Positions 2,786 through 8,788 of a DNA stretch of 15,005 bases are shown piece after piece. The position numbers were made by a program, and so were the translations under genes. The notes beneath the pieces were generated by a model. It did no database searches. It was not told the origin of the DNA and saw nothing but the letters and a program-made list of their open reading frames with translations. This stretch comes from a virus, in UHGV virus genome UHGV-2053560; one strand, written 5' to 3'. Position 1 is the stretch's first letter, and every line of letters begins with the position of its first letter.

Positions 2786-2967
2786 TGCTTGCCTCCTTTG
2801 CGCAACATCGCATTCAGATATTTGTTGTCATTAACAGAACCGAAACTCTTTCTCTTAAGCAATTCCTCTCTCGATGGCATTGGCTTTACGCGTTGGCGAA
2901 TAATCATTTCTGCCGGAAGAATTCCTGGATTGTATGCAAGTCCTCTCATGGTAAATTCCTCAGTCAT
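2782..2967 (-). CDS. Hypothetical small protein (61 aa)
   Basis: In-frame ATG at 2967 lies inside AATGACTGA, overlapping the stop of the upstream 97-aa gene (translational coupling). The ORF-track N-terminal extension to 3099 would overlap that gene by 140 nt and is rejected. Confidence 0.4.
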
Positions 2968-3253
2968 TACTGATAGCGCCATAGCGTGAGCGGTAATTAC
3001 GCAGGCGCGGGTCAATTTCAGGGAAGTGGGTATATGTGGCTTTGCGGAATGGTCGGATTGATGTCTGGTAAATTCGCTCGCGTTCTTCTTTCTCTGCAAG
3101 CCATATACAATGGCGAAATTCCTTTTCCTCTTTCGTTTCCTGCGGTAGCGACATTATCAGGTCGTAGTTTTTTCTGAATTTATCCAGCACCTCCGATACG
3201 GAATTGCCGGAACAGCGGCGCGGGTCATCCGCACCATACAGAGGCGCTGGCAT
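2960..3253 (-). CDS. Hypothetical protein (97 aa)
   Basis: ATG at 3253 preceded by AGGAGA; charged, helical-looking protein; first gene after ssb in the leftward operon. Confidence 0.55.
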
Positions 3254-3266
3254 GATTTTCTCCTGA

Positions 3267-3773
3267 TTAAATTGCGTGAATAGCGTGACGAGGGAAGGGG
3301 AGAGTTACTGGTGCAAAGGGTATATCGTCGTCAAAATCCATCGGAGGTTCGTTGTGTTGTGCTGGTGATGATTGCTGCTGTGGCTTCTGTGATTGCCTGC
3401 TGGCTGCTTGTTGTTTGCTGTCGCCAATGCCGCCAAGCATTTGCATCACGCCATTAATTCCGACATGAACCTCGGTTGTGTAACGGTCTTGTCCTGACTG
3501 GTCTTTCCACTTTCTGGTTCTCAGCATTCCCTCGAAATAAATCTGATCACCTTTTTTCACATACTGCCCCACGACCTCAGCCAGTTTCCCGGATACAGCA
3601 ACACGATGCCATTCAGTCAATTCCTTTTGCTCGCCAGTATTTTTATCTCGCCATTGTTCTGACGTGGCTATTGTCAGGTTAGCGAACGCTGTTCCTGATG
3701 GTGAGTATCGAACTTCCGGGTCTTGTCCTACCCGACCAAGGATAATCACCTTATTTACGCCTCTGCTTGCCAT
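3267..3773 (-). CDS. ssb: Single-stranded DNA-binding protein (SSB), with a 15-aa tail after the canonical DDDIPF
   Basis: N-terminal OB-fold signature [23 protein letters not shown], Gln/Pro-rich linker, acidic tip [10 protein letters not shown], then a further [15 protein letters not shown] before the TAA at 3267-3269. Confidence 0.9.
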
Positions 3774-4481
3774 TTATGCCGCCTGTTTTAGTTCGTTAAC
3801 TCTGATGTTCATTACCTGAACGCATTTAGCCTGCGCCTCCTCGTTGCCAGCCATTAATTGCCAGTCACGCTGATAACGCTCGATGAGTTTTTTCTTGTCA
3901 GTTTCTGTTGATGCATAATCGCTGAAGTCTTTCAGGATTTGTTCGCAGTCAACCGATGGAGATTTCTGGTTGGTATTTTCTGGTGATGGTTTGTTATCTG
4001 ATGCTGGGATTGCCCATCCCGGCAGCGATGGAGGGAGCCAGTAAAATCCTGTTCCATCCTTGAGTTTTGCCCTGTGCCATCCCTGCTTTTTATCGAGAGA
4101 TGTTTGTGCGAAACCTTCCTCAAGGTTATACAGATACCGACCGATTCCCCACTGAACGGCAGCGCGCTTCATTGCACCGGAACGACCACCTTTGACGGCT
4201 TCTACCTGCGTGTTTTCAGCAGCATCCCATTTGGTTACCCATTCGGAATCAATCTTGATTGATATGCCGCATTCAACTCCGCCGTTGTTGGGAATATCGC
4301 GGTATTCATTGCGCCATCCTGCTTTGCCGCAAACATCGTCCAGGCGCTTCATGATTGCCCGGTTCGTGACATAAGCCAGCACCATAGCCCACACCTTGCC
4401 ATCGCGTGTTTTACCGCTTTGCTGTATTCGCCATTCGATATCTTCAGGGCTGAATGGCTCATCGAATTTATTCAAATCCAT
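3774..4481 (-). CDS. Rad52/Rad22-family single-strand annealing protein (phage recombinase, Sak-like)
   Basis: 235 aa. Conserved core resembling Rad52_Rad22 (WRNEYRD...GGVECGISIKIDSEWVTKWD...KGGRSGAMKRAAVQWGIGRYLYNL). Its stop (3774-3776) abuts the ssb start (3773). Confidence 0.7.
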   Translation of the reverse strand: MDLNKFDEPFSPEDIEWRIQQSGKTRDGKVWAMVLAYVTNRAIMKRLDDVCGKAGWRNEYRDIPNNGGVECGISIKIDSEWVTKWDAAENTQVEAVKGGRSGAMKRAAVQWGIGRYLYNLEEGFAQTSLDKKQGWHRAKLKDGTGFYWLPPSLPGWAIPASDNKPSPENTNQKSPSVDCEQILKDFSDYASTETDKKKLIERYQRDWQLMAGNEEAQAKCVQVMNIRVNELKQAA

Positions 4482-4489
4482 AATTCACC

Positions 4490-4660
4490 TCAGAATGGAC
4501 ATGGCCCAAGGAAATAACGCTGATTTAATACTTCAGTCTTTGCCGCATTCAAAAATACGCGAACACCTTCACGATCTCCCTTCTGGCGATACATTAACGC
4601 CTGCTGCGTGTACATGCGCCTCTGTAACTTGCTCTCCTTCACTGTGGTTGCAAGTGACAT
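4490..4660 (-). CDS. Small hypothetical protein (56 aa)
   Basis: ATG at 4660 preceded by GAAGGAGA at good spacing; product MSLATTVKESKLQRRMYTQQALMYRQKGDREGVRVFLNAAKTEVLNQRYFLGPCPF. Below the 60-aa ORF-track cutoff, found by manual translation. Confidence 0.35.
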   Translation of the reverse strand: MSLATTVKESKLQRRMYTQQALMYRQKGDREGVRVFLNAAKTEVLNQRYFLGPCPF

Positions 4661-4739
4661 GAATATCTCCTTCGTTACCGATTAATTCTTTCATCTGACG
4701 AATGAATTCTTCGTCTGACCAGTTATCTGTAAAACTCAT
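4569..4739 (-). CDS. Small hypothetical protein (56 aa), in another frame overlapping 4490..4660
   Basis: ATG at 4739 overlaps the stop of the upstream kil-like gene (ATGA). N-terminal half MSFTDNWSDEEFIRQMKELIGNEGDIH looks protein-like; the C-terminal half overlaps the SD-preceded 56-aa ORF and may be out of frame. Confidence 0.3.
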   Translation of the reverse strand: MSFTDNWSDEEFIRQMKELIGNEGDIHVTCNHSEGEQVTEAHVHAAGVNVSPEGRS

Positions 4740-4888
4740 TTCCTGCGATACCATGGAAGGTTGATAGCTGATTTCATCGCTTTATTTGCTTCAAGCCACA
4801 TTTTTGAATCACCAATAAATCTGGCTATTACTGCTTTGTTTTGTGCCGCACGAAGCATCTGGTGATTAATGGCTATTTCATTGCGCAT
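4736..4888 (-). CDS. Kil-like small protein (50 aa), tentative
   Basis: ATG at 4888 preceded by GGAGG; product MRNEIAINHQMLRAAQNKAVIARFIGDSKMWLEANKAMKSAINLPWYRRK. Placed by synteny (directly downstream of the cIII-like gene, as kil is in lambda) and a motif I recall only loosely. Confidence 0.4.
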   Translation of the reverse strand: MRNEIAINHQMLRAAQNKAVIARFIGDSKMWLEANKAMKSAINLPWYRRK

Positions 4889-5007
4889 AACGCCTCCAGT
4901 TGTTTCTTTGCTGCTCTGATTAATTGTTTAACTCGGCGTGATAATTCAGATTCGTGCGGGTAGAAAGCGGACATGACGCCGCTACCCGCGAGCTGAAAGT
5001 GCATCAT
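4873..5007 (-). CDS. cIII: CIII-like small regulator (44 aa), tentative
   Basis: ATG-ATG at 5007 preceded by AAGGAG; product MMHFQLAGSGVMSAFYPHESELSRRVKQLIRAAKKQLEALCAMK has an amphipathic helix similar in pattern to lambda CIII (ESLLERITRKLR...). The ORF-track extension to 5112 runs through a terminator and is rejected. Confidence 0.45.
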   Translation of the reverse strand: MMHFQLAGSGVMSAFYPHESELSRRVKQLIRAAKKQLEALCAMK

Positions 5008-5201: not shown

Positions 5202-5672
5202 CTAATAAAATACCCAATTTTCTGTTTCTTGGTTGTGTCCAAAGTTATATTCAATAACTGGTGTTGATGTATCAATATTTTTCATCCCATCAACAAGAGT
5301 TGATACAACAGCCAAATCTTGTTTTATTCTCATTAAATGGTATTTCTTCCGGCGCAATAAACTTTCAATAGCAAGTTTCTTCGTTGGGAATGCAAAAGAT
5401 CTTTCTGCATTTTTTGCTACTTTCTTAATTGCATATCTATTTCTCCTTTGTTTCCATTCCTGTAACCACTGATTTGGTGCTGGTTTAAAATTAACAACCC
5501 AATGCGCAGGAACCAACCATGCATAATGCTCTGTCTGATGAAAAGCTATATATTGAAGTGCGAATATTTTTATCCCATCTTCTTCAACTGTCGACTGGAA
5601 TCTCCAGAAAACAGGCATTCCATCATGTTCAGTTTCTGATTCAGGAAAAGGTACGCTCCATGATTTTGTCAT
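5202..5672 (-). CDS. Hypothetical protein (156 aa), AT-rich moron in the N-to-cIII interval
   Basis: ATG at 5672 preceded by GAGGTGAGAT; ends in TAG at 5202-5204. Visibly more AT-rich than the flanking genes. Non-repetitive soluble-looking protein; no family recognised. Confidence 0.6.
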   Translation of the reverse strand: MTKSWSVPFPESETEHDGMPVFWRFQSTVEEDGIKIFALQYIAFHQTEHYAWLVPAHWVVNFKPAPNQWLQEWKQRRNRYAIKKVAKNAERSFAFPTKKLAIESLLRRKKYHLMRIKQDLAVVSTLVDGMKNIDTSTPVIEYNFGHNQETENWVFY

Positions 5673-6669: not shown

Positions 6670-7104
6670 TTATTCTTGTTCTCTGGTCAAATTATATAGT
6701 TGGAAAACAAGGATGCATATATGAATGAACGATGCAGAGGCAATGCCGATGGCGATAGTGGGTATCATGTAGCCGCTTATGCTGGAAAGAAGCAATAACC
6801 CGCAGAAAAACAAAGCTCCAAGCTCAACAAAACTAAGGGCATAGACAATAACTACCGATGTCATATACCCATACTCTCTAATCTTGGCCAGTCGGCGCGT
6901 TCTGCTTCCGATTAGAAACGTCAAGGCAGCAATCAGGATTGCAATCATGGTTCCTGCATATGATGACAATGTCGCCCCAAGACCATCTCTATGAGCTGAA
7001 AAAGAAACACCAGGAATGTAGTGGCGGAAAAGGAGATAGCAAATGCTTACGATAACGTAAGGAATTATTACTATGTAAACACCAGGCATGATTCTGTTCC
7101 GCAT
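6670..7104 (-). CDS. rexB: RexB, membrane component of the Rex abortive-infection/exclusion system
   Basis: 144 aa, multiple hydrophobic helices, directly downstream of rexA in the cI transcript. Size, position and sequence agree with lambda RexB as I recall it. Confidence 0.9.
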   Translation of the reverse strand: MRNRIMPGVYIVIIPYVIVSICYLLFRHYIPGVSFSAHRDGLGATLSSYAGTMIAILIAALTFLIGSRTRRLAKIREYGYMTSVVIVYALSFVELGALFFCGLLLLSSISGYMIPTIAIGIASASFIHICILVFQLYNLTREQE

Positions 7105-7119
7105 AATTACTCCTGATAA

Positions 7120-7959
7120 TTAATCCTTAACTTTGCCCACCTGCCTTTTAAAACATTCCAGTATATCACTTTTCATTCTTGCGTAGCAATATGCCATCTC
7201 TTCAGCTATCTCAGCATTGGTGACCTTGTTCAGAGGCGCTGAGAGATGGCCTTTTTCTGATAGATAATGTTCTGTTAAAATATCTCCGGCCTCATCTTTT
7301 GCCCGCAGGCTAATGTCTGAAAATTGAGGTGACGGGTTAAAAATAATATCCTTGGCAACCTTTTTTATATCCCTTTTAAATTTTGGCTTAATGACTATAT
7401 CCAATGAGTCAAAAAGCTCCCCTTCAATATCTGTTGCCCCTAAGACCTTTAATATATCGCCAAATACAGGTAGCTTGGCTTCTACCTTCACCGTTGTTCG
7501 GCCGATGAAATGCATATGCATAACATCGTCTTTGGTGGTTCCCCTCATCAGTGGCTCTATCTGAACGCGCTCTCCACTGCTTAATGACATTCCTTTCCCG
7601 ATTAAAAAATCTGTCAGATCGGATGTGGTCGGCCCGAAAACAGTTCTGGCAAAACCAATGGTGTCGCCTTCAACAAACAAAAAAGATGGGAATCCCAATG
7701 ATTCGTCATCTGCGAGGCTGTTCTTAATATCTTCAACTGAAGCTTTAGAGCGATTTATCTTCTGAACCAGACTCTTGTCATTTGTTTTGGTAAAGAGAAA
7801 AGTTTTTCCATCGATTTTATGAATATACAAATAATTGGAGCCAACCTGCAGGTGATGATTATCAGCCAGCAGAGAATTAAGGAAAACAGACAGGTTTATT
7901 GAGCGCTTATCTTTCCCTTTATTTTTGCTGCGGTAAGTCGCATAAAAACCATTCTTCAT
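7120..7959 (-). CDS. rexA: RexA, sensor/activator component of the Rex exclusion system
   Basis: 279 aa, immediately downstream of cI on the same strand. Size, position and N-terminus (MKNGFYATYRSKNKGKDKRS) agree with lambda RexA as I recall it. Confidence 0.9.
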   Translation of the reverse strand: MKNGFYATYRSKNKGKDKRSINLSVFLNSLLADNHHLQVGSNYLYIHKIDGKTFLFTKTNDKSLVQKINRSKASVEDIKNSLADDESLGFPSFLFVEGDTIGFARTVFGPTTSDLTDFLIGKGMSLSSGERVQIEPLMRGTTKDDVMHMHFIGRTTVKVEAKLPVFGDILKVLGATDIEGELFDSLDIVIKPKFKRDIKKVAKDIIFNPSPQFSDISLRAKDEAGDILTEHYLSEKGHLSAPLNKVTNAEIAEEMAYCYARMKSDILECFKRQVGKVKD

Positions 7960-8071
7960 AATTCAATCCATTTACTATGTTATGTTCTGAGGGGAGTGAA
8001 AATTCCCCTAATTCGATGAAGATTCTTGCTCAATTGTTATCAGCTATGCGCCGACCAGAACACCTTGCCGA

Positions 8072-8788
<717 letters not shown>

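Follow-up and report, generated by a model that had tools for sequence, protein, structure and literature searches.

The locus considered here raises the question of how two small open reading frames (ORFs), lying in different frames and sharing part of their DNA upstream of a recombinase gene, are to be read: as a real gene and a spurious one, as two translated genes, or as one gene parted by a frameshift, programmed or mutational. The window, that is, the whole stretch of 15,005 nt analysed (UHGV virus genome UHGV-2053560), contains both of them, and they are called A (upstream) and B (downstream).

The pair and its place in the PL operon

The window is a lambdoid prophage in which an integrase, lambda-type cI, rexA and rexB, and N are present, and by this gene set the A/B pair belongs to the early-left (PL) operon. 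The gene order of this operon is cIII, kil, A, B, Rad52/22-type annealing protein, SSB and Abc2 (Table 1). The first-pass annotation had described two 56-aa ORFs starting at 4739 and 4660 and overlapping by about 90 nt in different frames, the first coupled to a kil-like stop and the second with a strong Shine-Dalgarno. This description was confirmed: the overlap is 92 nt long and the frame of B is +1 to that of A, the ATG of A and the stop of kil share an ATGA (4739-4736), kil is recognised by Pfam, and the Shine-Dalgarno GAAGGAG is followed by a 6-nt spacer and the ATG of B. The gap between the stop of B and the ATG (4481) of the Rad52/22 gene is 8 nt. A longer A of 61 aa, from an ATG at 4754, depends on a CCATGG in kil that is peculiar to the window, the relatives having CCGTGG.

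Table 1. Features of the A/B locus, with positions in the window
Feature	Position	Strand	Evidence and remarks
cIII-like gene	4873..5007	minus	CIII annotated at matching position in mEpX2, HK97 and E. coli STEC346
kil, 50 aa, host division inhibitor	4736..4888	minus	Pfam Lambda_Kil E 1.7e-20; phrog_2055 E 1.2e-35
ORF A, 56 aa	4569..4739	minus	phrog_2123; ATG 4739, TGA 4571-4569
ORF A, constrained part, codons 1-26: MSFTDNWSDEEFIRQMKELIGNEGDI	4662..4739	minus	predicted helix 9-20, Arf-like motif
Shine-Dalgarno GAAGGAG of B	4667..4673	minus	inside A codons 23-25; invariant across aligned lineages
A/B overlap, 92 nt	4569..4660	minus	A tail codons 27-56 over B codons 1-31
ORF B, 56 aa	4490..4660	minus	phrog_1723; ATG 4660, TGA 4492-4490; helical hairpin ending in FLGxxPF
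Rad52/22-family single-strand annealing protein, 235 aa	3774..4481	minus	Pfam Rad52_Rad22 E 5e-26; phrog_1097 E 3.5e-130
SSB	3267..3773	minus	ORF and translation; ssb annotated in mEpX2 and STEC346
Abc2 anti-RecBCD protein, end of recombination module	2960..3253	minus	Pfam Anti-RecBCD_p2 E 6e-65

Other elements of the region are mentioned for completeness. The immunity region (6670-8785) is lambda-type and comprises rexB, rexA and an S24/HTH cI repressor; its association with a P22/HK-type recombination module (Rad52/22, SSB, Abc2) is typical lambdoid mosaicism. Between cIII and N there is a 156-aa ORF (5202-5672, minus strand) without a Pfam match. A terminator-like hairpin formed by CGTGAAGGTGTTCGCG and TATTTTTG was identified at the stop codon of A, inside B (4558-4573, minus strand); it is confined to window-type sequence, and the scan gave 3 such sites against 1.8 expected by chance. 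A 19-nt palindrome, GACGAAGAATTCATTCGTC (4697-4715, minus strand), has an EcoRI site and coincides with the conserved SDEEFIR codons of A, and is not kept in Enterobacter-type A genes. No internal promoter was indicated, promoter-like sites being fewer than in shuffled sequence.

A and B are known, already annotated small ORFs of lambda-like phages, and the overlap itself is already annotated. The 701 bases around them are 98.4% identical to phages mEpX2 and mEp235, show 93-99% identity to parts of HK022, HK75, Sf6, HK97 and others, and are matched in 1,178 of 5,426 complete E. coli genomes. The annotations of mEpX2, mEp235, HK022 and Sf6 include the two overlapping ORFs (genes 30 and 29 in the last one). 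A matches phrog_2123 (E 1.1e-39, profile positions 1-52 of 52) and B matches phrog_1723 (E 4.5e-34, profile positions 3-58 of 58). The 'recombinase' label given to these ORFs in RefSeq and PHROGs derives from context only. The NCBIfam and PADLOC libraries contained no match for A or B, and Pfam gave only sub-threshold noise.

Selection on the two frames and features of A and B

Ratios of pN/pS were obtained by Nei-Gojobori counts from 12 pairs among seven lineages of the same geometry. In the A-only region (A codons 1-26) the ratio is 0.33 in frame A, 1.20 in the +1 frame, where there is no B gene, and 1.27 in the other frame. In the overlap the values are 1.87 in frame A, 0.47 in frame B and 0.86 in the other frame, and in the B-only region (B codons 31-56) they are 2.15 in frame A, where A is not coding, 0.24 in frame B and 0.84 in the other frame. 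The frame-A value of the overlap resembles the non-coding one of the B-only region. The comparison of conservation by codon position that the first-pass annotation had suggested pointed to the same assignment of frames: variable columns fall on the three positions of frame A as 5/5/14 in the A-only part (chi-square P 0.008) and on those of frame B as 15/9/22 in the overlap, where 46 of 78 columns vary, and 12/5/21 in the B-only part, third positions being the most variable.

Polymorphism was counted within types in a kil-anchored sample of 79 viral contigs, hence unbiased for A and B; an initial set of 80 viral loci had been chosen on identity to B and was left out of these counts. Frame A of the A-only region contains 5 synonymous and 13 non-synonymous changes, a weak and non-significant synonymous excess (P 0.15), and in the overlap it contains 1 and 15 (P 0.99). 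Frame B contains 9 synonymous and 7 non-synonymous changes in the overlap (P 0.002) and 20 and 7 in the B-only region (P 6e-8). The open length of A across B was compared with synonymous codon resampling in which the B protein was held fixed, and also with codon permutation and codon-order shuffling; it is not beyond chance (P 0.15-0.48 per lineage, Fisher combined P 0.22). The sequence of the A tail, which includes VTCNHSEGEQVTEAHVHAAGVNVSPEGR in the window type, is wholly different between lineages.

From the pN/pS and polymorphism patterns, A codons 1-26 and all of B behave as coding, and the 30-codon tail of A does not. B is under purifying selection along its whole length and is a real gene. 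The earlier impression that A is protein-like only in its N-terminal half was borne out (0.33 in codons 1-26 against 1.87 in the overlap). True dual coding, with both frames constrained, found no support: the pair is intact and co-occurring, but in the overlap frame A is unconstrained (1.87, against 0.47 in frame B), B alone being under constraint there, and the length of the ORF is within chance. The arrangement is similar to that of lambda Rz/Rz1 and other phage gene pairs overlapping out of frame, where the start of the second gene, with a ribosome-binding site of its own, is located inside the first in the +1 frame. The DNA shared by Rz and Rz1 encodes functional parts of two products, neither of which is dispensable, whereas here B alone constrains the shared 92 nt, so that the overlap looks like a run-on of A and not like true dual coding.

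A is without a usable Shine-Dalgarno, having an AGGA 1 nt from the ATG in the window and none in Enterobacter-type sequences. In every A-bearing lineage its start overlaps the stop of the upstream gene (ATGA, or GTGA in Pseudocitrobacter), whatever that gene is. The conserved motif of A is D-x-W-S-D-E-E-F-I-R-x-M, and AlphaFold predicts a single short helix (residues 9-20, pLDDT about 72), after which the tail is of low confidence. A is like the Arf protein of phage P22 in being a small acidic peptide encoded between kil and an annealing-protein gene and overlapping the start or stop codons of its neighbours, and both have the N-terminal motif [WF]-S-D-E-E-F-I. P22 arf is located at 27868..28011, between kil and erf; its product of 47 aa ends at the start of erf and P22 is without a B gene, whereas the C-terminal half of A is an out-of-frame read of B. 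The match of A to phrog_2445 (Arf) has an E of 0.042 over residues 5-26, the one obtained with hhalign is short and weak (E 0.0017, probability 15.7%, only 19 columns), and the Pfam model of Arf (PF17585) gave no match to A at E<=1. Arf is reported to aid Erf-dependent recombination, to be non-essential and to act by an unknown mechanism, as summarised in a passage of PMC12315714 that cites Poteete et al. (1991).

The B family comprises 126 clusters at 90% identity in a profile search, nearly all of 56, 60 or 62 aa, all named 'hypothetical' and without a Pfam domain; in an exhaustive HMM search it comprises 31 clusters at 50% identity. The 126 clusters are spread over Escherichia, Salmonella, Enterobacter, Citrobacter, Yersinia, Serratia, Pantoea, Atlantibacter and other Enterobacterales. 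In the AlphaFold model (mean pLDDT 91.7) B forms a hairpin of two helices, residues 7-27 and 30-51, and the family carries the C-terminal motif N-x-[RK]-[YF]-F-L-G-x-x-P-F; B of the window fits the hairpin, the motif and the gene position. Fold searches with this model against PDB and BFVD identified only generic helical hairpins, all with E > 0.4. A relationship with Kil as a paralogue was considered and set aside as unproven, Kil PF06301 giving no Pfam match and hhalign of the B family against Kil sequences giving a probability of 1.2%. B and Kil have in common a helix-G-D-helix pattern, QALMYRQKGDREGV...AAKTEVLNQRYF in the former and AVIARFIGDSKMW...AMKSAINLPWY in the latter.

In every locus examined B is directly upstream of the annealing-protein gene, with an overlap of <=17 nt or a gap of <=10 nt. 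The gene after B encodes Erf, Rad52/22 or a Sak4-like ATPase, and SSB is usually next. As B always adjoins an annealing-protein gene, it would, judged by gene neighbourhood alone, serve the annealing-protein/SSB recombination module as an accessory factor. The slot of the PL operon immediately before the annealing-protein gene is occupied by gam in lambda and by hkaM in HK620, according to the legend of Figure 3 in PMC5928155. In HK620 the sak4-ssb pair alone reproduced the recombineering stimulation of the whole module including hkaM, the latter being dispensable for this effect (PMC5928155). No sequence similarity was detected between B and lambda gam or HK620 hkaM, and HkaM was rejected as a B homologue, HK620 not being among the matches listed (40 of 69 phage records, tblastn with a B homologue). 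For the control of RecBCD this phage has Abc2. Literature searches found no functional study of gp42, of the Sf6 genes or of a small upstream cofactor.

The C-terminal 55 aa, approximately, of the Rad52/22 protein of the window (3774-3940) differ little from the C-terminus of P22 Erf (27254-27420), and the N-terminal cores of the two proteins differ. A similar C-terminal pattern was identified on the Erf-like protein of Yersinia and on the ATPase of Pseudocitrobacter, both encoded downstream of B. Swaps of the Erf C-terminal domain are mentioned in PMC2629481. This domain of the annealing protein is a candidate partner for B or A.

The pair in other lineages, the fused alleles and the alternatives

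The A and B pair was identified in 57 of the 79 kil-anchored contigs, with both ORFs intact in about 54 of these 57. The overlapping arrangement recurs in 4-5 diverged lineages, the overlap being 80-95 nt. Enterobacter phage vB_Ecl_MII_001 contains an A of 54 aa (37% identical to A of the window) and a B of 56 aa (57%), overlapping by 86 nt and followed by a Sak4-like ATPase. A Pseudocitrobacter prophage contains an A of 53 aa, with a GTG start on the upstream stop (GTGA), and a B of 56 aa, also overlapping by 86 nt and followed by a 298-aa ATPase. P22-like Salmonella phages (SPN9CC) contain an A of 60 aa and a distant homologue of B of 62 aa, overlapping by 95 nt and followed by Rad52/22.

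Each ORF was also identified without the other or without the overlap. A Yersinia similis prophage lacks A and contains a B of 56 aa with the same Met-Ser-Leu start, ATGA-coupled to the upstream gene and followed by an Erf-like gene. In several viral contigs B is present without A, the A frame closing 11-14 nt past the start of B, and in loci lacking A the start of B is at the same Met. The HK140-type loci (22 of the 79 kil-anchored ones) have an A of 35 aa and no B; here A overlaps by 23 nt an unrelated 103-aa ORF, which is followed by RecT. Atlantibacter prophages have an A of 34 aa (MNTPVKDWSDDALIRLMKDLDAPEKSPEPEEEES), ATGA-coupled at both ends, its junction with a B of 60 aa being a 4-nt ATGA; Erf or Rad52/22 and then SSB follow. 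A and B are thus two separate small genes of many lambda-like prophages, each also occurring alone, neither broken nor frameshifted. A mosaic breakpoint is located inside A after about codon 17 (window about 4689-4739; kil-anchored loci L186-L265): the first 16-17 codons continue as ...KELIGNEGD... with B, or as ...NKMLNQHKEQEKDDDSDSE (35 aa, HK140-type, RecT module) without B.

The first-pass annotation had proposed a comparison with orthologous regions for indels that would fuse the frames. An uninterrupted ORF does exist, Gp42.1 of HK97, with 83 codons from the start of A to the stop of B; it is exceptional, the split form being intact in about 95% of the kil-anchored sample. The extra bases of HK97 are two single-base insertions, CATGT[C]ACACGC[G]AG, that fuse the A frame to B. 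Among 93 matching phage records only the two HK97 entries have 296 nt, the other full-length matches listed having 294 nt; HK106, at 98.3% identity, is also of 294 nt and without insertions. The insertions were identified in none of the 91 other matching phage records, closest relatives included, and the HK97 version in none of the 853 matching genomes of the 5,426 complete E. coli genomes (the best ones 97.6% identical, with 81 nt against 83). HK97 and HK022 have Erf downstream of the pair, whereas this window has Rad52/22.

A protein search with Gp42.1 identified eight further fused proteins of 81-82 aa, with the frames joined at different residues, mostly singletons of draft or metagenome assemblies. 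Split forms are found in clusters of up to 511 member sequences, one cluster being present on 364 contigs. One fused allele, P0001, was identified on 36 draft contigs, where the Erf module resembles that of HK97, and is absent from the 5,426 complete E. coli genomes. A deletion of 1 nt is accompanied in it by substitutions (GTAC-CTCAG), and its indel is at the same spot as those of HK97 (window about 4608-4620; L003 1885-1900 for HK97, and L266 1325-1335). The two alleles differ by 3 nt, in frame, and could therefore share descent or mark an indel hotspot. With both alleles missing from complete genomes and the junctions variable, the fusion is a rare derived state and not the ancestral gene.

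A common origin of A and B in a single ancestral gene of about 82 aa, similar to HK97 Gp42.1 and split into two halves by a frameshift mutation or a sequencing error, is accordingly at odds with the data and very improbable, even with the single 83-codon ORF of HK97, the fused proteins of 81-82 aa in the database and P0001 on 36 contigs in its favour. The two extra bases of HK97 are absent from the phage records and complete genomes listed above, as is P0001 from the latter, the other fused proteins join at different positions and are mostly draft-assembly singletons, B keeps its Met-Ser-Leu N-terminus where A is absent, A ends on its own in other lineages, and the split form prevails in the unbiased sample. 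Scarcely credible is a programmed +1 ribosomal frameshift in the overlap, yielding a fusion of the A N-terminus and B besides A and B themselves. B is in the required +1 frame; near the stop of A the sequence GAA-GGG-AGA-UCG-UGA brings close together a Shine-Dalgarno-like AAGGGAG, the rare codon AGA and a stop; and the natural fused alleles are viable, by which an A-B fusion protein is tolerated. Against this, an alignment of nine lineages contains no invariant block in the overlap and no conserved shift site, and what is invariant is GAAGGAG followed by 5-6 nt and the ATG of B. The GAA-GGG-AGA-UCG-UGA sequence is not conserved, the stop of A being UCG-UGA in the window and CCA-UAA, 12 nt earlier, in the Sf6-type, with the Enterobacter-type different throughout. 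No stable RNA structure was identified in the region, including one masking the Shine-Dalgarno of B (z -1.2 and -1.5). Judged by sequence, none of the codons that precede the stops would be slippery for a +1 shift. A programmed frameshift cassette is therefore not supported: there is no conserved site, B has its own initiation signal and the fusion junction is not conserved. The frameshift contemplated in the first-pass annotation, programmed or mutational, thus found no support in this window, with no conserved shift site and with the HK97 insertions in no other record.

A further alternative takes only B as a gene and the A frame as a non-functional spacer between kil and B, kept as the leader and ribosome-binding site of B and as a mosaic recombination boundary. 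The tail of A is unconstrained and its length within chance, PGAP calls B alone, omitting A, in some genomes (one RefSeq E. coli genome), the 13 non-synonymous and 5 synonymous changes within types in the A N-terminus are not significantly off neutral, and the mosaic breakpoint is inside A. In addition, A residues 22-24 (N/S-E-G) coincide with the Shine-Dalgarno of B, so that part of the conservation of A is at the nucleotide level. This alternative is nevertheless unlikely. Between lineages the A-only region varies mainly at third positions of frame A (5/5/14, P 0.008), with a pN/pS of 0.33 in that frame against 1.2-1.3 in the others; the start of A overlaps an upstream stop in every A-bearing lineage; and ORFs of 34-35 aa that resemble A and carry its motif stand alone, the Atlantibacter one being ATGA-coupled at both ends.

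Two probable cistrons and their meaning

It is likely that the PL operon carries A and B as two independent cistrons, between kil and the annealing-protein gene. Both ORFs are conserved, selection acts on the N-terminus of A and on all of B, and there is no frameshift signal. Among the options that the first-pass annotation had left (one ORF spurious, both translated, or a frameshift between them), translation of both as separate cistrons fits best, with B occurring without A and A of 34-35 aa occurring alone; the translation itself is argued from sequence. No ribosome profiling or mass spectrometry of A or B was found in the searchable literature. Both ORFs are probably translated, and both proteins may have a role in recombination.

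With two cistrons, ribosomes ending at the stop of kil would restart at the overlapping ATG (ATGA), and A would be translated by termination-reinitiation; the lack of a usable Shine-Dalgarno and the constant position of the start on an upstream stop make this probable. The working part of A would be the first 26 residues or so, one short helix with the Arf-like motif. As there is no stop before the start of B in this lineage, A runs on into B, where translation would go on in the -1 frame over the initial third of B, as far as the first chance stop, and end in a tail of about 30 residues that is probably disordered. B would initiate independently, from a strong, near-consensus Shine-Dalgarno and an ATG located within A codons 23-27, to give the 56-aa two-helix hairpin. 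Ribosomes on A must cross the start site of B, so the translation of A may modulate the initiation of B.

It is conceivable, although rather doubtful, that the annealing-protein/SSB module has in A and B a joint accessory of two peptides, with B as an unrecognised cofactor for three unrelated annealing-protein families (Erf, Rad52/Sak and Sak4) and with the overlap setting the relative amounts of the two, since ribosomes translating A pass over the start site of B. If this were true, the fused alleles (HK97 Gp42.1 and P0001) would be 'Rosetta-stone' evidence that the N-terminus of A and the hairpin of B work in one complex.

The A/B feature is an ordinary one and its biological interest is modest. 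For annotation, both ORFs are to be called here, and the fused gp42.1 of HK97 is an exception unfit as a template. The pair is a clean example of apparent dual coding constrained by one frame only. B is a well-conserved small protein without a Pfam family, in tight linkage with genes for phage annealing proteins of three different folds. Should B prove to be a cofactor of recombination in general, it could be relevant to recombineering tools.
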